Source: an uncultured Candidatus Saccharibacteria bacterium (GTDB taxonomy: Bacteria; Patescibacteriota; Dojkabacteria; GCA-016699595; JBAXKR01). From it: a DNA stretch of 64,000 bases. This document shows positions 2,554 to 49,901 of this stretch, piece after piece. Made by a program: the position numbers and the translations under genes. Location: NCBI GenBank assembly GCA_964430225.1, contig CAYSFE010000001.1, positions 11,820 through 75,819 of the forward strand, written 5' to 3'. The notes under the pieces were generated by a model. It did no database searches. It was not told the DNA's origin and worked only from the letters and a program-made list of their open reading frames with translations. Position 1 is the first letter of the stretch; each line of letters opens with the position of its first letter.

Positions 2554-3189
2554 ATGAAGATAACTAAATTTGGACATTGTTGTTTGTTAATAGAAGAGAA
2601 AGGAAAAAGAATTCTTACAGATCCTGGAAACTTCTCTAACTTACAAGACGATGTAAAGAATATTGATATTATTCTCATCACCCATGAACACCCTGATCAT
2701 ATCCATATAGAATCATTACAAAAGATACTAGAAAATAGTCCTAAAGCACTAATAGTTACAAACACAGCTACCTCCAAACTTTTAGTTCCCTTAAATATTA
2801 CTTTTGAAATCTTAGAAGATGGAAGTGAGAAAGAATTTTTAGGCATACAAATATCAGCACATGGAAAACTTCATGAAGAAGTATATTCTACAATTCCTAG
2901 AGTACAAAACACCGGTTTCTATATTTCAAATCGACTCTTTTACCCAGGAGATTCATTTACTATTCCAGGTTTTAATGTAGACATCTTAGCTCTTCCAGTA
3001 GCAGGTCCATGGGTAAAACTATCTGATTCAATTACATATGCTCTTAAAGTAAAACCAAGAATTAGTTTTCCAGTTCATGATGGAATGCTAATATCTGGTG
3101 GATCAGCACATGCATTACCAAATAAAATATTAAGTGAGAATGGAATAGAATTTAAAGTACTAGAGATTGGAAAAGAATATGAGTTTTAA
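2554..3189 (+). CDS. MBL-fold metal-dependent hydrolase
   Basis: 'ILITHEHPDHI' (HxHxDH metallo-beta-lactamase motif), 211 aa, downstream His/Asp ligands. Confidence 0.7.
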   Translation: MKITKFGHCCLLIEEKGKRILTDPGNFSNLQDDVKNIDIILITHEHPDHIHIESLQKILENSPKALIVTNTATSKLLVPLNITFEILEDGSEKEFLGIQISAHGKLHEEVYSTIPRVQNTGFYISNRLFYPGDSFTIPGFNVDILALPVAGPWVKLSDSITYALKVKPRISFPVHDGMLISGGSAHALPNKILSENGIEFKVLEIGKEYEF

Positions 3190-3206
3190 TTATTATTTTC
3201 AAACAT

Positions 3207-3527
3207 ATGTCAGACAAATTAAAAAAGTTTATTCCACTAATGATCTTAGGTGGGATAATATTGTTAGGAATTGGAGCATACATAATTGCGAATAGGACAG
3301 GTATGCCTACAAAACTTGCTACAGAACCAGCTAATTTCTTTTTAGGCTTTTGGCATGGCTTAATAATAGTATTATCTTTGATAGCTAGTTTTTTTGACCA
3401 AAACATAGTTCTATATCAAGCAAATAACTCCGGAGCTCTATATAATGTTGGATATCTAAGTGGAATCTTAATATCTATTGGGTTATTCGGAGGAAATACA
3501 TATAAGAAAACCAATAATAAATCATAG
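3207..3527 (+). CDS. small integral membrane protein, hypothetical
   Basis: 106 aa with three hydrophobic helices. Confidence 0.45.
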   Translation: MSDKLKKFIPLMILGGIILLGIGAYIIANRTGMPTKLATEPANFFLGFWHGLIIVLSLIASFFDQNIVLYQANNSGALYNVGYLSGILISIGLFGGNTYKKTNNKS

Positions 3528-3564
3528 TTTTTGAAAATATATTGTTTCTTTGATATCATTCTTT

Positions 3565-3618
3565 ATGCAATTAAGAATTGTTACAACTACAACCACTACT
3601 ACTAGACCTACCTTGTAA
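3565..3618 (+). CDS. putative Thr-rich leader peptide (MQLRIVTTTTTTTRPTL) upstream of thrS
   Basis: ATG at 3565, then ACA ACT ACA ACC ACT ACT ACT (7 consecutive Thr codons) and an 8th Thr; stop TAA at 3616-3618 lies in the hairpin loop. Too short for the ORF track. An alternative in-frame TTG start is at 3550. Confidence 0.35.
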   Translation: MQLRIVTTTTTTTRPTL

Positions 3619-3624
3619 GGTAGG
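3607..3624 (+). promoter_or_regulatory. hairpin CCTACC-TTGTAA-GGTAGG overlapping the leader stop; candidate attenuator/terminator or ThrRS operator (tRNA-Thr anticodon-loop mimic CUUGUAA)
   Basis: 6-bp GC-rich stem with a loop containing UGU (the tRNA-Thr anticodon) flanked by U and AA, followed by GAGTTTTGATT. Confidence 0.35.
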
Positions 3625-3722
3625 GAGTTTTGATTCTCTGTAATAAACTCTCGGTCAAATTCACAGAAAATAGTTTAAGTAATATGATATATATATAAAT
3701 ATTAAACATTAATAAACACACA

Positions 3723-5507
3723 ATGAAATCATATAAAGAACATGAAGAAGATAACAAACTAGTATCAGATATTGAAAAGAAAAGACATACATCAGCTCAT
3801 GTACTAGCACAAGCTGTACTTGAACTCTACCCTGGAGCAAAGCTTGGTATTGGACCAGCTATTGAGAATGGCTTTTACTATGACTTTGAACTTCCTAATA
3901 CATTAGGTATGGATGATCTTAAAGCGATTGAAGACAAAATGTATGAGATTAAAAAGAAAGATCTACCACTATCACAAAAATTCATAGAGAAGGAAGAAGC
4001 GTTAAATATGCTTAATATTAGTGGTCAAACATACAAAGCTGAACTACTACATGAAATACCAGATGAAAAGATTAGTTTCTTTTCTACAGGAGATCAATTC
4101 AGTGATATGTGTAAAGGTCCTCACGTAGAATCTACTGGTAAGATTGGAATCTTTAAACTTACAACTGTTGCTTCAGCATACTGGAGAGGAGATGAGAAGC
4201 GACCAGTACTTCAGCGTGTATACGGTGTTGAGTTTGATAGTGAAGAAGAATTAGATAATTATTTTGAGATGTTAGAAGAAGCTAAAAGAAGAGATCATAG
4301 AACTTTAGGTAAAGAGCTAGGTCTATTTCTATTCTCTGATATAGTTGGTAAAGGATTACCTCTTTGGACGGTAAAGGGAGCAACAATTAGACGTGAACTA
4401 GAAAGATTTATTGTTGATGAAGAGATAAAAAGAGGATATGAACATGTATATACTCCAGATATAGCTAAAATAGATCTATATAAAAAGTCAGGACATTACC
4501 CTTACTATAAAGACAGCATGTATGCTCCTATTACTATAGAAGAAGAAGAGTATATGTTAAGACCTATGACATGTCCTCATCACTTTCAAATATATGCTTC
4601 TCAAAAACGTAGCTATAGAGAACTACCTATGAGAATTGCAGAGCTTGCAAAGCTTTACAGATATGAGCAATCAGGAGAGCTATCAGGACTAATGAGAGTT
4701 AGAAGTTTCTGTTTGGCAGATGCACATATTATCGCTCAAAAAGAACAAGCTATTGATGAAATAAACAAAGCATTAGACTTAATAGAATTTGCTGCAGGTG
4801 TATTCGGACTTAAACCAAATGAAGACTATTCATATAGACTATCCTTAGGAGATAGAAAGAATGAAGAGAAATATTTTAAAGATGATAAAGCTTGGGACTA
4901 TGCTGAAGATCAGTTAAGAGAAGTTCTTAAAACTCGTTCTGTTAAGAGTGTAGAAGCACCAGCAGAAGCAGCTTTCTATGGACCTAAAATAGATATACAA
5001 ATGAGAAATATCTTAGGAAAAGAAGAAACAGCATTCACAGTTCAATATGATTTTGTAATGCCAAAAAGATTTGAACTTAAATTTACTAACGAAGAGGGAA
5101 ATGATGAAGAACCAATAGTAATCCATAGATCAAGTATCGGAGCAATAGAAAGAATCATAGCTCTATTAATAGAAAGATATGCAGGAGTATTCCCTCTATG
5201 GTTAAGTCCAGTACATGCAAAGATAATCCCAATAGGAGAAAAACATGTAGAGTATGCTAAAGGAGTACAATCAAAAATGAAGGAACTTGGTTTAAGAGTA
5301 GAGATAGATGTAAGACCTGAAAGAATGCAAGCAAAGATAAGAGATGCTCAAGTAGAAAAGATTCCTTACATGTTAGTAATAGGGGATAAAGAGATGGAAA
5401 ACGACTCTATTGCAGTACGTCCAAGAACAGGAAAAGATATGGGAATGATGAAAACTGATGACTTCATAAGAGAAGTTTTAGAGGAAATAAAAACTAAAAA
5501 GTTATGA
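3723..5507 (+). CDS. thrS: threonyl-tRNA synthetase (lacks N-terminal TGS domain, starts in the editing/SAD domain)
   Basis: 'HTSAHVLAQAV' (second additional domain), class II motifs ('RPMTCPHHFQIY', 'FCLADAHII', 'HRSSIGAIERIIALLIE'), C-terminal anticodon-binding domain. 594 aa. Confidence 0.9.
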   Translation: MKSYKEHEEDNKLVSDIEKKRHTSAHVLAQAVLELYPGAKLGIGPAIENGFYYDFELPNTLGMDDLKAIEDKMYEIKKKDLPLSQKFIEKEEALNMLNISGQTYKAELLHEIPDEKISFFSTGDQFSDMCKGPHVESTGKIGIFKLTTVASAYWRGDEKRPVLQRVYGVEFDSEEELDNYFEMLEEAKRRDHRTLGKELGLFLFSDIVGKGLPLWTVKGATIRRELERFIVDEEIKRGYEHVYTPDIAKIDLYKKSGHYPYYKDSMYAPITIEEEEYMLRPMTCPHHFQIYASQKRSYRELPMRIAELAKLYRYEQSGELSGLMRVRSFCLADAHIIAQKEQAIDEINKALDLIEFAAGVFGLKPNEDYSYRLSLGDRKNEEKYFKDDKAWDYAEDQLREVLKTRSVKSVEAPAEAAFYGPKIDIQMRNILGKEETAFTVQYDFVMPKRFELKFTNEEGNDEEPIVIHRSSIGAIERIIALLIERYAGVFPLWLSPVHAKIIPIGEKHVEYAKGVQSKMKELGLRVEIDVRPERMQAKIRDAQVEKIPYMLVIGDKEMENDSIAVRPRTGKDMGMMKTDDFIREVLEEIKTKKL

Positions 5508-5551
5508 TATAATTATTTCATATATTTTAATCTCACTACTTAAAACAAAAT

Positions 5552-6181
5552 ATGTTTACTAACTCAGGAAGAAGCTTTGGAGGAAGATCAGGAGGATATA
5601 ATCCTAATTTTAAGAGACCTTTTAATTCTAGTTCACGACCACCATTCTTTAAAACAAGACAGCCTTACGTTAAGGTAGAAAATACTTATGGATTTAATAG
5701 AAATGAATTCATTAAAGCTACTGAGGTTAATGTCATAGACCCTAATGGGGTTAACCTTGGTTTAATGCCTACTGAAGTGGCTATTCAGAGAGCTCGTGAT
5801 GAGTTTGATCTAGATTTAGTTGAAGTAGCTCCTAATGCTAAACCCCCTGTATGTAAGATTACAGATTGGTCTAAGTTTAGATATGAGCAAAGCAAAAAAC
5901 ATAACCAAACATCTAAATCTATCGATATGAAGGGAATGTGGTTTTCTCCAGTTATTGGAGAAGGGGATTTAAACCATAAAGTGGAGAGAATATTAGAGTT
6001 TGTAAGTAAGAAACATCCAGTTAAAGTAGAGGTAAGATTCAAAGGTAGAATGAAGAGAGATCAGGTAATTATCACTATGAATAAGGTGATGGAGCTTCTT
6101 AAGGATCAAGTAAAAGTAGAAGCTTCACCTAAGTTTGAAGGAAGATCATATTCAACCATAGTTTACCCTATTAAAAAGTAG
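5552..6181 (+). CDS. infC: translation initiation factor IF-3 with ~45-aa Arg/Gly/Pro-rich N-terminal extension (true start uncertain)
   Basis: Conserved IF3 N- and C-domains ('LDLVEVAPNAKPPVCKITDWSKF', 'KVEVRFKGRMKRD'). Position after thrS matches the conserved operon order. Confidence 0.8.
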   Translation: MFTNSGRSFGGRSGGYNPNFKRPFNSSSRPPFFKTRQPYVKVENTYGFNRNEFIKATEVNVIDPNGVNLGLMPTEVAIQRARDEFDLDLVEVAPNAKPPVCKITDWSKFRYEQSKKHNQTSKSIDMKGMWFSPVIGEGDLNHKVERILEFVSKKHPVKVEVRFKGRMKRDQVIITMNKVMELLKDQVKVEASPKFEGRSYSTIVYPIKK

Positions 6182-6219
6182 TTGTTTAAGTTCATGTAGC
6201 TTTGATATAATCATCTCCT

Positions 6220-6420
6220 ATGAAACATAAGACCCACAAGGGACTAGCAAAAAGAATAAAGAAAATTGGTTCTAAAAAGAACGAGAAACTTGTTCACTAT
6301 CCACAAGGGGATTCACATCACTTAAGATCAAAGAAAAGTGCTAAAAGAAAGAACAGAATGAATACAATGAGTGTTATGGGTGGTAAGGTTCAAATCAAAT
6401 TAGTTAAAAGTTTAATATAA
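6220..6420 (+). CDS. rpmI: 50S ribosomal protein L35 (bL35)
   Basis: 66-aa, very basic protein between infC and rplT, as in the conserved infC-rpmI-rplT operon. Confidence 0.7.
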   Translation: MKHKTHKGLAKRIKKIGSKKNEKLVHYPQGDSHHLRSKKSAKRKNRMNTMSVMGGKVQIKLVKSLI

Positions 6421-6424
6421 TAAA

Positions 6425-6772
6425 ATGAGAGTAAAACGAGGAGTCACAGCACACGCTAAACATAAGAAGTTACTAAAACGAAATAAAGGATATACCTTAT
6501 CTTACTCAGGACTTGTAAAGAGAGCTAAAGAAGCAGCTTTACATTCAGGTGAATATTCTAAGAAACATAGAAGAGCAAGAACAGGACAATTCAGAAATGT
6601 ATGGATCACTAGAATCGCAGCAGGACTAATGGAATACGATATGAGATATTCCGACTTTATTAATCTCCTAAATAAGGCTAGTATTAAACTTAACAGGAAA
6701 GTAATGGCAGACTTAGCTTTGGATCATGCTAACGCCTTTAAAACTCTTGTTGAGACAGTAAAAACTAAGTAA
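6425..6772 (+). CDS. rplT: 50S ribosomal protein L20 (bL20)
   Basis: 'MRVKRGVTAHAKHKKLLK...RRARTGQFRNVWITRIAAG' matches bL20. Confidence 0.9.
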   Translation: MRVKRGVTAHAKHKKLLKRNKGYTLSYSGLVKRAKEAALHSGEYSKKHRRARTGQFRNVWITRIAAGLMEYDMRYSDFINLLNKASIKLNRKVMADLALDHANAFKTLVETVKTK

Positions 6773-46172: not shown

Positions 46173-46238
46173 AATGTATACAAAGTACACTAGTTTGTAT
46201 CTTTTGATTAAAGCAATGTATACAAACTTTCTATTTTA
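46173..46238. repeat. ~65-bp structured repeat unit, copy 1 (hairpin + conserved 25-mer overlapping the RhuM stop codon)
   Basis: AATGTATACAAAGTAC...TTTGTAT hairpin, then CAATGTATACAAACTTTCTATTTTA (46214-46238). 23/25 identity to copy 2. Confidence 0.55.
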
Positions 46239-47279
46239 TAGAACTGTTTTGTTATTAGGATCAATTAGTTTTTTAACTTCTTTGTCAAAGTCAGAAATAT
46301 AATTTTTATCCTGTATAGGTTTATATTTCTCATACTCACTTTCAGCAAATGACTTGGCCACTTCTGATGAAACTTTACCAGCATTTTTCAAGATATCTTT
46401 ATTATTAAATCTCAAAAATACATCAAGTTTTGTAGCCCAATCTTTCATAGTCATTGGGGTACCGTTTTCTGCCTGGTCTTCTGCATAATCCAAATACATA
46501 GTAACAATTCGGTTAAGTGCCTTGATCTCTTTTTCATTGAGATAGTTTTTTGCTATTACTACATCTGTCTTGAGTATTTTTCCCTTTGGAGCCTTTTTCC
46601 ATGTTGTTAAGCCCATATATTCTTTTTCATGAGAGACTCGATCTACAATCAGCTCAGCTGCTGTATTTTGATGAATAGCGTAATGCATCTTATTTTGAAC
46701 TGTAGCGAAGAAATCTTTAGTTGTTTGTGAATTAAGGTCATAATCTAAAGCAGTTACATAAATATCCGTTATTTTTTGATAAAAGTTTCTTTCACTTTCA
46801 CGAATATCTCTAATTTCAAGAATTAAATCTTCAAAATATTGCTTACTTAAGAATGAACCGTTTTTTAATCTTTCACTATCAAGTACATATCCACGAGTTG
46901 AGAAATCTTTCAATATTCTATTTGCCCATCGACGAAATTCTATTGCTCTTTCTGAGTTAACTTTAAATCCTATTGCTATGATTGCCTCTAAACTATAATG
47001 CTCAACATCTCTTTCCACTTTGCGTGAACCTTCAGTTTGAACTATTCGAAAATTTCGAATAGTTGAGTTCTCAACTAATTCCTTACTCATGAATATCTCT
47101 TTTATATGGTAGTTAATGGTGTTAATTTCAACACTAAAAAGTTTTGCAATTAATTTTTGTGTCAGCCAAATATTCCCATCCTCAACCCTTACTTCAATAC
47201 TATCTTGGCCAGATTGTAGGGTAAATATTAAAAATTCTGAAGTACTATTTCTTATCATTAAGTTTTTACTATTTGGCAT
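46236..47279 (-). CDS. RhuM-family protein (virulence/defence-island associated)
   Basis: N-terminal 'IEVRVEDGNIWLTQKLIAKLFSVEINTINYHIKEIF', typical of the RhuM/Fic-associated family. 347 aa. Confidence 0.55.
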   Translation of the reverse strand: MPNSKNLMIRNSTSEFLIFTLQSGQDSIEVRVEDGNIWLTQKLIAKLFSVEINTINYHIKEIFMSKELVENSTIRNFRIVQTEGSRKVERDVEHYSLEAIIAIGFKVNSERAIEFRRWANRILKDFSTRGYVLDSERLKNGSFLSKQYFEDLILEIRDIRESERNFYQKITDIYVTALDYDLNSQTTKDFFATVQNKMHYAIHQNTAAELIVDRVSHEKEYMGLTTWKKAPKGKILKTDVVIAKNYLNEKEIKALNRIVTMYLDYAEDQAENGTPMTMKDWATKLDVFLRFNNKDILKNAGKVSSEVAKSFAESEYEKYKPIQDKNYISDFDKEVKKLIDPNNKTVL

Positions 47280-48332: not shown

Positions 48333-49901
48333 ATGAATGGACTAAGCTTAAAACAAAAAAGAGTTTATGATTATATAATTAAATTTATAAATGAAAATGG
48401 AATAGCTCCAACTATCGAAGAAATCCGAAAAGCCTTAAAATTAATGGCAACATCTACAGTTCATGAACATATTAAAACTTTAGTAGATAAGGGATATCTT
48501 AAAAAAGAGACCTCCTATCACAGAGGGTTAATTCCAATAAAAGCAATTAAGAAAGTATTTGAGGTTCCAATAATCGGGAAGATTGCAGCTGGCAAACCCA
48601 TTGAGGTAAATGAGGTTTTTGAAGATACAATTTCAATTGTAAACGAAAATATTTCCAACATAAAAGATTTTTATGCTTTAAAAGTCGAGGGTAACAGTAT
48701 GATTGACGAAGGAATTTTTGATGGAGACATTGTGATAGTCAAGAAACAATCAGTAGCCGAAAATGGCCAGACTGTAGTTGCTATTGTTGATGATAATTGT
48801 GCAACTCTTAAAAAGATATATAAAGAGAAATCTAGATTTAGGCTTGAGCCAAGAAATCAATCTATGCTTCCCTTTTTTAGAAAAGAGGTTGAAGTAAGAG
48901 GTGTTGTTATTCAAATCATTAGTAATACCTTTAGTAATGCATTAAATAAACAAGAAAAACAACAAAATTTTAGAACAATTGATTTATTTGCAGGTATTGG
49001 TGGCATACGTATTGGATTTGAAAAAGCAGGATTTAATACAGTTTTCGCAAATGATTTTGAGCCAAATTGTAAAATTACTTATGATCTTAACTTCAAGAAG
49101 ACAAAACTAGTGGTTGAAGATATAAAAAAAATTGGTATTAAAGATTTACCAAACTTTGATTTTGTTTTAGCTGGCTTTCCATGTCAGGCATTTTCAATCG
49201 CTGGTTACAGACAGGGTTTTAATGATGAGAAGGGAAGAGGAAACTTATTCTTTGATATTGTTAAAATTTTAGAAGCACGTAAACCCGAAGGATTTTTACT
49301 AGAGAATGTTAAGAATCTAAAAAGTCATGATAATGGTAAAACTTTTAAGATTATAGAAAAATCGTTAACAGACCTAGGCTATTATGTCAAAACAAAGGTA
49401 CTAAACTCAATGGAATATGGTAATATCCCACAGAATCGCGAACGAATATATATTGTAGGATTCAAAAATAAGAATTATGCAGAAAAATTTACATTCCCAT
49501 TGCCACAAAAGCTTTCAACAAAAGTAGAAGACTTATTAGAAAAGAATGTTCTACAAAAGTATTATTACAATAACAAGCCACTTTACGAGAAGCTTAAAAA
49601 TCATGTAAAAGTAGGAAAGGTTTATCAGTGGAGAAGACAATATGTAAGGGAAAACAAGAAAGGTGTTTGTCCAACATTGACTGCAAACATGGGAACAGGA
49701 GGGCATAATGTTCCAATTATAAAAGATAGTAAGGGAATTAGAAAATTAACTCCAATCGAGTGCGCAAGAATTCAAGGATTTCCGCAAGATTTTGTACTAC
49801 CAAATCTTGCAGACTCCATACTTTATAAACAAATTGGAAATTCAGTCAGTGTACCAGTCGTAGAGTCAGTAGCAAAACAAATGATGAAAGCATTAGAATA
49901 A
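48333..49901 (+). CDS. fusion protein: LexA-like repressor (HTH + S24 autopeptidase) fused to DNA (cytosine-5) methyltransferase
   Basis: Residues 1-~200 are collinear with LexA ('IAPTIEEIRKAL...HIKTLVDKGYL', 'IGKIAAGKPIE' Ala-Gly site, 'VEGNSMID' Ser, 'IVIVKK' Lys). C-terminal C5-MTase motifs: I 'DLFAGIGGIRIGF', IV 'GFPCQAFSIAG', VI 'ENVKNL', 'RIQGFPQDF', 'GNSVSVPV'. Confidence 0.8.
   Translation: MNGLSLKQKRVYDYIIKFINENGIAPTIEEIRKALKLMATSTVHEHIKTLVDKGYLKKETSYHRGLIPIKAIKKVFEVPIIGKIAAGKPIEVNEVFEDTISIVNENISNIKDFYALKVEGNSMIDEGIFDGDIVIVKKQSVAENGQTVVAIVDDNCATLKKIYKEKSRFRLEPRNQSMLPFFRKEVEVRGVVIQIISNTFSNALNKQEKQQNFRTIDLFAGIGGIRIGFEKAGFNTVFANDFEPNCKITYDLNFKKTKLVVEDIKKIGIKDLPNFDFVLAGFPCQAFSIAGYRQGFNDEKGRGNLFFDIVKILEARKPEGFLLENVKNLKSHDNGKTFKIIEKSLTDLGYYVKTKVLNSMEYGNIPQNRERIYIVGFKNKNYAEKFTFPLPQKLSTKVEDLLEKNVLQKYYYNNKPLYEKLKNHVKVGKVYQWRRQYVRENKKGVCPTLTANMGTGGHNVPIIKDSKGIRKLTPIECARIQGFPQDFVLPNLADSILYKQIGNSVSVPVVESVAKQMMKALE

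Follow-up and report, generated by a model that had tools for sequence, protein, structure and literature searches.

A threonine-codon leader peptide upstream of thrS in a Patescibacteria genome: a candidate attenuator of compact form

A short leader open reading frame (ORF) with a run of seven Thr codons lies directly upstream of thrS, the gene for threonyl-tRNA synthetase (ThrRS), in a 64,000-nt stretch of DNA from an uncultured Candidatus Saccharibacteria bacterium (GenBank contig CAYSFE010000001.1, positions 11,820–75,819), here called the window. The ORF sits in the 195-nt spacer before the gene (3528–3722) and ends inside a GC-rich hairpin, H1. Our best reading is that the spacer carries a ribosome-mediated attenuator of thrS, which senses charged tRNA-Thr via the leader peptide; we give this reading a probability of about 0.6. 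Its parts differ in strength. On comparative sequence evidence, the Thr-codon leader is not a chance occurrence but is real and functional. It is very probably translated and sensitive to Thr-tRNA. A homeostatic mode of regulation, in which a stall turns thrS on, is likely, and the balance tips only slightly toward H1 being a transcription terminator. The 17-codon ORF, the seven Thr codons, the 195-nt spacer and the stop codon within a GC hairpin had been described in an earlier note on this DNA, and with their coordinates they are borne out on the sequence.

The features of the region are as follows.

3531–3559, forward strand: predicted promoter P1, with −35 TTGAAA (3531–3536), a 17-nt spacer and an extended −10 TGaTATCAT (3551–3559); score 10/12 plus TG at 3551–3552; conserved in strains.
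3565–3618, forward strand: leader ORF, MQLRIVTTTTTTTRPTL followed by stop; ATG at 3565, TAA at 3616–3618, 17 sense codons; homologous leaders before thrS in relatives.
3583–3603, forward strand: seven-Thr-codon run (ACA ACT ACA ACC ACT ACT ACT), the proposed sensor of charged tRNA-Thr, from the codon reading; third positions invariant in four strains.
3607–3624, forward strand: hairpin H1, stem 3607–3613 / 3618–3624, loop UGUA; predicted fold of 7 bp, −10.5 kcal/mol.
3625–3635, forward strand: U-rich tail GAGUUUUGAUU after H1, a weak, interrupted U-tract, invariant in strains.
3636–3669, forward strand: invariant block 3′ of H1, which holds one half of candidate hairpin H2; zero variable sites in four strains.
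3660–3688, forward strand: candidate second promoter P2, TTCACA-17-TATGAT; score 10/12, with a supporting pattern of strain variation.
3723–5507, forward strand: thrS, 594 aa, with tRNA_SAD, tRNA-synt_2b and HGTP_anticodon domains and no TGS domain.

Recurrence, selection and promoter of the Thr leader

The comparison covers 160 thrS loci from genome and metagenome collections and 13 more found via exact protein look-ups, labelled L001, L002 and so on. Enrichment was measured in 115 non-redundant 400-nt thrS upstream regions, with small ORFs defined as 6–45 codons and with other amino acids, the antisense strand and 100 dinucleotide shuffles as controls. Small ORFs with Thr runs of at least three codons are present at 15 loci in the sense direction versus 2 in antisense, and the shuffles average 1.7 and never exceed 4. 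Runs of at least four Thr codons are found at 13 of the 115 loci (next amino acid, 2; antisense, 0), and runs of at least five at nine loci for Thr and one for Ala. Over 600 kb of loci, both strands included, only 19 small ORFs have Thr runs of at least four. Twelve of these lie less than 400 nt upstream of thrS in the sense direction, four are at −451 to −574, and the other three are elsewhere. Runs of Leu and of Ser number nearly 100 each in the same 600 kb and are almost never in the thrS-upstream region. The leader ORF is the sole small ORF with a Thr run of at least four on either strand of the 64-kb window. The more distant ORFs (L056, L078, L148 and L156; for example MQMQKFNTTTTTSS), 451–574 nt before thrS and with runs of 4–5 Thr codons, may be leaders separated from the gene by a long spacer or by a small gene.

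The closest other lineage (L001, L002 and L081) has the leader MKSFVLN[IT]KTRSNTTTTTTTRVSC..., which also contains seven Thr codons, written with other synonymous codons; the hairpin of this leader is unrelated to H1 in sequence. The upstream neighbor genes of L001 and L002 differ, and the leader still accompanies thrS. The enrichment before thrS and the difference in synonymous codons across lineages indicate that the run is selected as Thr codons and is specific to thrS.

An alternative in which there is no regulation at all takes the run as a low-complexity ACT-rich stretch beside the terminator of the upstream gene (3207–3527), or as a small protein gene. The region is AT-rich, promoter-like matches are as common as in shuffles (16 sites found, 16.0 expected for the scan as a whole), and the whole 5′ region folds no better than shuffles (z −0.72), all of which is consistent with this view. 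Against it, Thr-run ORFs recur before thrS and not elsewhere, the leader stays with thrS while the upstream neighbors change, and the frame and the Thr identity persist though synonymous codons differ between lineages. The strains are also near-invariant here. We consider an absence of regulation extremely unlikely. A simple-repeat artefact was likewise rejected, as Tandem Repeats Finder calls no repeat at the leader region and the run length is constant in the four strains.

The window ThrRS belongs to a cluster of 16 in the protein database, in which 12 full-length members besides the exact match differ from it at 6–19 of 594 residues (at least 97% identity). The strain alignment consists of the window and three divergent members of this cluster. 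Across these four sequences, 237 of 595 third-codon positions in thrS (40%) are variable. The stretch that starts at the −35 hexamer and ends at 3669 has only seven variable positions (3543, 3544, 3561, 3570, 3578, 3579 and 3615); two of them are in the promoter spacer and one other is a synonymous Ile change. The third positions of the Thr run are all invariant, its length is constant, and from 3580 to 3669 there is one variable site only. This site, G3615A, changes TTG to TTA in the H1 loop, which is synonymous and turns UUGUAA into UUAUAA; the variant is present in L162 and L163, contigs from two different samples, with the rest of the leader intact. Codon 5 of the L162 leader is changed from Ile to Thr, gaining one Thr codon. 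By this alignment, purifying selection on the leader is strong among strains.

P1 ends 5 nt before the leader ATG. Its TTGAAA-17-TATCAT element at 3531–3559, already noted as promoter-like, is present as described; both hexamers are invariant in the four strains, the spacer varies at 3543–3544, and the DNA 5′ of the −35 is highly variable. Of 28 leaders, 23 have a TANNNT −10-like hexamer 4–9 nt 5′ of their start codon, among them all 19 of the compact type described below, whereas 13% of ATGs overall in these loci do (p = 3e-16). At the 60 window gene starts examined, a Shine-Dalgarno-like motif is found in only three, and many have a −10-like box 5–8 nt 5′ of the ATG, which suggests that leaderless mRNAs are widespread in this genome. 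Because P1 ends so close to the ATG, the −10 hexamer recurs at leader starts and Shine-Dalgarno sites are scarce, the leader is most likely translated from a leaderless or near-leaderless RNA. With the motif this rare, a Shine-Dalgarno-like sequence in the 3′ arm of H1 is moot. P2 is located 34 nt ahead of the thrS ATG. Its hexamers are invariant in the four strains, while its spacer varies at 3670, 3671, 3674 and 3676 with unchanged length, a pattern that fits a promoter and makes P2 a plausible candidate. P2 would supply basal thrS transcription regardless of the attenuator state.

The earlier note had read the region as a Thr-codon leader peptide, and this gains support from the recurrence before thrS in many Patescibacteria, the purifying selection, the conserved promoter at the start codon and the lack of an Rfam T-box.

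Hairpin H1 and two leader architectures

H1 has the sequence CCTACC(T)/(A)GGTAGG, followed by GAGTTTTGATT. It encloses the Pro-Thr-Leu codons and the TAA stop (3616–3618) of the leader, and an eighth Thr codon (ACC, 3610–3612) is within the stem. None of 150 random 33-nt windows of the same sequence folds as well, and H1 is the only terminator-like site in 3000–6500. We take it as a putative premature terminator because it is the best terminator-like site locally, because relatives terminate, and because the U-rich tail recurs. In the candidate hairpin H2, AAACUCUC (3645–3652) is predicted to pair with GGGAGUUU (3623–3630). A GGAG...CUCC pairing at the equivalent place in L002 and L081 is weakly supported. 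H2 was rejected as an exclusive alternative to H1, as its 6-bp form coexists with H1.

The loop of H1 had also been proposed to mimic the anticodon loop of tRNA-Thr, so that ThrRS would bind H1 as an anticodon arm and repress thrS as at the E. coli operator. The string CUUGUAA is indeed present at 3612–3618, a second UGUAA is in the candidate H2 loop (3639–3643), and ThrRS has an anticodon-binding domain. The 7-nt anticodon-like loop, however, does not form: with C3612 paired to G3619, only 6 nt are left in the loop (4 nt in the minimum-energy fold). G35 is the main identity base of the tRNA-Thr anticodon, and it is lost in the natural UUAUAA variant of L162 and L163 while the rest of the leader is unchanged. 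Homologous hairpins have unrelated loops (UAAA/CUAAA, UUA, UUCG and CCUGU). H1 is 99–116 nt upstream of the thrS ATG, with 98 nt between its end and the ATG, and therefore cannot compete with ribosome binding at the thrS start. Neither the 7-nt loop with G35/U36 nor the adjacency to the thrS ribosome-binding site of an E. coli-type operator is found here, and a mimic would leave the Thr run without a role. This explanation is scarcely credible.

Thr leaders before thrS are of two types. The classical type is found in nine relatives (L030, L047, L052, L068, L073, L105, L130, L133 and L160), which have a separate GC-rich terminator beginning 27–37 nt past the leader stop, with a U-tract of at least five. 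Constrained folds, in which 28 nt of the leader are blocked to mimic a ribosome, give the same result in all nine. A ribosome at the first Thr codon replaces the terminator in 9/9 by an antiterminator that uses the leader end, and one at the stop codon leaves the terminator intact in 9/9. The unblocked RNA also forms the terminator in four of the nine. By these folding models, the nine classical relatives are of homeostatic design.

The window shares the second, compact type with Dojkabacteria-like relatives: a leaderless ORF, a short hairpin, and a stop codon in or just past the hairpin. In every compact relative a Thr codon falls within or next to the hairpin's 5′ arm, and most of these relatives have U-rich tails (counted by eye). 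A set of 24 leaders shows enrichment of hairpins at the stop codon (Fisher p = 1.8e-7), weak though they are in several members, and hairpins of differing arm sequence occupy the same place in relatives. In L002 and L081 the start of the Thr run (ACACAACU, leader codons 13–15) is complementary to the 5′ arm of the hairpin (AGUUGUGU), with −7.5 to −10.7 kcal/mol, so that a ribosome occupying the run would promote the hairpin. The hairpin in these two loci is without a U-tract and may differ in role from H1.

The Dojkabacteria leaders make up a family of their own. L004, L005, L082, L165–L170 and L173 share a leader peptide 100–170 nt upstream of thrS, with the consensus M[YF][RK]..G....K[IL].K[IL]V[FY][PT]T-x-x-stop. 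Synonymous changes are present at nearly every third codon position, which argues that selection acts on the peptide itself. As a rule these leaders have a single Thr codon, which invariably lies within or next to the 5′ arm of the hairpin. The peptide could be of the arrest type, sensitizing a single Thr codon. From its sequence, the window RIV-T7-RPTL-stop looks like a derived member of this family (compare KIVFPTSL-stop).

Eleven of 16 compact relatives have a second small ORF whose start codon overlaps or directly adjoins the leader stop (UAAUG, UGAUG, AUGA or UAA-AUG); this ORF ends −32 to +8 nt from the thrS AUG. The overlap is seen in L004, L005 and L082, and also in L165–L169, L080, L002/L081 and L045. 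In the three WS6 loci the second ORF is exactly 15 codons long and ends with UAAUG or UAAAUG on the thrS start, while the intervening sequence has diverged. The arrangement of these ORFs suggests a ribosome relay from the leaderless ORF to thrS, peptide-assisted and without Shine-Dalgarno sites. No overlap between the leader stop and a second start is present in the window. A second ORF in the window (TTG, 3630–3698) was discarded as not conserved, L161 having an early stop and a 2-nt insertion.

Proposed mechanism and direction of control

Under the attenuation reading, transcription would start at P1, with the leader ATG at most a few bases from the 5′ end. The ribosome would translate MQLRIV and meet the seven Thr codons, then the eighth in the hairpin stem. 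Its position would set whether H1, followed by UUUU, can form behind the polymerase, H1 acting as a premature terminator ahead of P2 and thrS. When Thr-tRNA is short, a ribosome held at Thr codons 6 to 8 would cover the 5′ arm of H1, allowing read-through into thrS-infC-rpmI-rplT-pheST. Fast translation followed by release would let H1 form. To our knowledge, every known synthetase control is homeostatic (the T-box, pheST, the E. coli thrS operator). We choose this conventional direction because the known synthetase controls and the nine classical relatives are homeostatic, and because the invariant Thr codon of the compact leaders sits where a waiting ribosome would hold the hairpin open.

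Several points weigh against this reading. As to H1, its short U-tract does not adjoin the stem, GAG lying between them, few gene ends in the window have a canonical terminator, and the sister lineage (L001, L002 and L081) has a hairpin without a U-tract. A bare terminator also does not explain the invariance of the block 3636–3669. As to structure, the window has the codon run and the thrS-specific conservation in relatives expected of an attenuator, and it lacks an exclusive antiterminator. A mutually exclusive terminator/antiterminator pair, which the earlier note had expected on folding, is present in the nine classical relatives and absent from the window, where constrained folds give just H1 present or absent. 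The sole alternative partner of the H1 3′ arm and U-tract is the Thr run, at −9.8 kcal/mol. Random Thr-codon runs pair with the 3′ arm at a mean of −10.1 kcal/mol and 54% of codon permutations do equally well, so this pairing is no evidence of design. An antiterminator in the window was rejected on this result together with the whole-leader z score given above.

As to direction, the window pattern of ribosome positions is reversed relative to the nine classical relatives: in constrained folds a ribosome placed at Thr codon 1 leaves H1 intact, and one placed at Thr codon 7 or the stop abolishes it. The stop codon is inside H1, so the ribosome cannot leave before the polymerase passes the U-tract. 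From the usual footprints of ribosome and polymerase, geometric reasoning predicts that termination is favored when the first ribosome lags at Thr codons 1–4, which is the reverse direction. A tentative view, which we hold doubtful, is that the compact form is a distinct design and not a degenerate classical attenuator, with either the ribosome as sole antiterminator in the reversed direction or the hairpin as a positive element in an undescribed mechanism.

In a fully reversed scheme, H1 would report the coupling of ribosome and polymerase as in pyrBI. A ribosome pacing the polymerase would cover the 5′ arm of H1 and give read-through, and a delayed ribosome would give termination from P1, so that a shortage of Thr-tRNA would lower P1-driven expression of thrS-infC-rpmI-rplT-pheST with P2 giving a basal level. 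The constrained folds agree with this behavior of H1, the ORF ends within the hairpin, and an antiterminator is lacking. The seven Thr codons are just 5′ of the hairpin and, by the same geometric reasoning, are decoded during transcription of the terminator. The complementarity of the Thr-run start to the hairpin 5′ arm, in L001, L002 and L081, and the plausibility of P2 point the same way. However, such a scheme is positive feedback on an essential synthetase, at odds with the nine homeostatic relatives, and it gives no reason for the Thr codon always found in or against the hairpin arm of the compact relatives. It could also use any codon, yet Thr is specifically enriched. We consider the reversed scheme unlikely; if true, it would be the first anti-homeostatic synthetase control.

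Thr sensing could instead act after transcription, with H1 no terminator and a stalled ribosome altering the folding, stability or ribosome delivery of the mRNA, for example by protection of the 5′ end, by a change in the H1/H2 region or by a relay of small ORFs as in relatives. This would give a role to the invariant block 3636–3669, remove the timing problem posed by the stop inside H1, and suit both the sister lineage without a U-tract and the stop/start overlap in the compact relatives. The leaderless poly-Cys small ORFs of mycobacteria use translational attenuation (bioRxiv 10.1101/834739). In the window, though, the leader has no such overlap, and the only second ORF (TTG at 3630) is shortened in L161. 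A pairing of the Thr run with the thrS start, in the manner of the mycobacterial poly-Cys ORFs, was rejected as not above chance (56 of 300 shuffles as good). A Rho-dependent version is unsupported: C is not enriched over G in the spacer (12 C, 10 G), and no rho is present among 20 ORFs scanned. A literature search for Rho found no paper on the Patescibacteria group. Post-transcriptional sensing is improbable, and attenuation by H1 with a stall that turns thrS on is preferred.

Should this attenuator be confirmed, the candidate phyla radiation (Patescibacteria) would have its first described cis-regulatory leader peptide, as far as literature searches show. These bacteria are uncultured and have very few regulators, and the window genome is near-devoid of Shine-Dalgarno sites. 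The compact form is about 70 nt from transcription start to U-tract and has no alternative RNA structure, which would make it a simple case of the ribosome alone deciding termination. Such a compact leader would also be a small sensor of charged tRNA, potentially movable into other systems. The interest is in the breadth of Thr-leader control in an unstudied radiation, in the compact form free of an antiterminator and in the direction of switching, and less in a new logic for thrS.

Genomic setting and comparison with known systems

The gene order in the window is thrS, infC, rpmI, rplT, pheS and pheT. The organism is of low GC content; its nearest ThrRS relatives are candidate division WS6 / Dojkabacteria and unnamed Patescibacteria genomes, with identities of 77% to L001/L002 and 66% to WS6. 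The N-terminus of ThrRS is the editing (tRNA_SAD) domain, the TGS domain being absent. IF3 (5552–6181) is extended at its N-terminus by about 40 residues, among which Gly, Ser, Phe, Arg and Pro are frequent, and rpmI (6220), inside the operon, has TGATATAAT 8 nt ahead of its ATG. Far from the operon, a 522-aa ORF (48333–49901, forward strand) fuses LexA DNA-binding, S24 peptidase and C-5 cytosine DNA methylase domains; by its domain content, the product is an unusual SOS-type repressor/methyltransferase fusion. A RhuM-family gene (46236–47279, reverse strand) is near it.

No known RNA family accounts for the leader. At the gathering score, an Rfam scan of the whole window gives only two tRNAs. 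At permissive settings (E up to 10), 3400–3850 yields nothing credible, the best hit being a minus-strand match of 18 bits against a threshold of 75, and in 40 related loci no family apart from tRNAs is found. The T-box model (RF00230) has no covariance-model match and the T-box motif GGUGGNACCGCG is absent at the window leader; the check for a T-box or other leader family there, suggested by the earlier note, thus finds none. The enterobacterial Thr leader (RF00506) matches neither the window nor any of 20 Thr-leader loci.

T-box-like leaders do occur in other relatives. A T-box-like motif is present in 12 of 115 thrS upstream regions by loose match. One locus, L014 (2203–2402), has a T-box-like leader before thrS whose Rfam score, 29 bits (E 1e-4), falls well short of the gathering threshold of 93; an apparent ACC specifier was read in it by eye. 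Loci L006, L017, L033, L037, L071, L092, L097, L099, L100, L109, L140 and L150 have the T-box core motif by loose match only (at most two mismatches). These matches suggest divergent T-box-like thrS leaders in some other relatives from the Patescibacteria and Chloroflexi, and divergent T-boxes in the Patescibacteria radiation escape standard annotation. As some Patescibacteria carry T-box-like leaders and others Thr-run leaders, the mechanism at thrS has been swapped within the lineage.

Leader-peptide control of thrS had been called undescribed, which is overstated. Leader-peptide attenuation of synthetase genes is known for pheST and predicted for Streptomyces leuS and trpS (PMC1262725). In Streptomyces lividans a 'thrL' leader, MKRVRPFLETTPGFVPAR, has been proposed upstream of thrS, among leaderless leader peptides that also include one for alaS (PMC8079986). 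This proposal, the only one found in a literature search for a thrS leader peptide, means that 'undescribed' is not quite right, though it concerns two Thr codons in one genome.

The functionally closest system is pheM-pheST, followed by the Streptomyces leuS and trpS leaders and the proposed thrL-thrS. In E. coli, pheM encodes a Phe-codon-rich leader peptide before the phenylalanyl-tRNA synthetase genes. Like the window leader, pheM is a short ORF with a run of cognate codons before a synthetase operon, has a hairpin with a U-tract, and is found in the same neighborhood, thrS-infC-rpmI-rplT-pheST. Unlike it, pheM is Shine-Dalgarno-led and has terminator/antiterminator alternatives, whereas the window leader is leaderless and ends inside its only hairpin; the two are not homologous. 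The Streptomyces leaders resemble it as leaderless ORFs before synthetase genes, thrS included, with one hairpin next and no clear U-tract. The proposed thrL differs in having two Thr codons and in coming from the RNA-sequencing data of one genome, compared with 7+1 Thr codons in the window and recurrence across many Patescibacteria.

Enterobacterial thrL also uses a Thr-codon run in a leader peptide to sense Thr-tRNA, but it controls biosynthetic genes, has Ile codons as well and folds into the classical four-segment structure. The nine classical Patescibacteria attenuators have the Thr-run leader directly before thrS, as in the window, and differ in their separate terminator, U-tract of at least five and antiterminator. 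The mycobacterial poly-Cys ORFs are, like the window leader, leaderless and short and sense charged tRNA through a run of one codon; unlike in these ORFs, pairing between the run and the synthetase gene start in the window does not exceed chance.

E. coli pyrBI has a similar geometry. Its leader ORF enters the terminator hairpin, as do the window codons CCT ACC TTG TAA in the 5′ arm and loop of H1, and the ribosome itself, not an alternative RNA structure, blocks termination. It differs in sensing UTP by polymerase pausing and not charged tRNA by ribosome stalling; the window shows no sign of a nucleotide-sensitive pause site, and its sensor would be the Thr codons. The E. coli thrS operator and the Firmicute thrS T-box control the same gene, but there the RNA is read by ThrRS or by tRNA and no leader peptide is involved. 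If confirmed, a Thr-tRNA-sensing leader peptide with at least two architectures would be a third logic for thrS, beside the protein-bound operator of E. coli and the T-box of Firmicutes.

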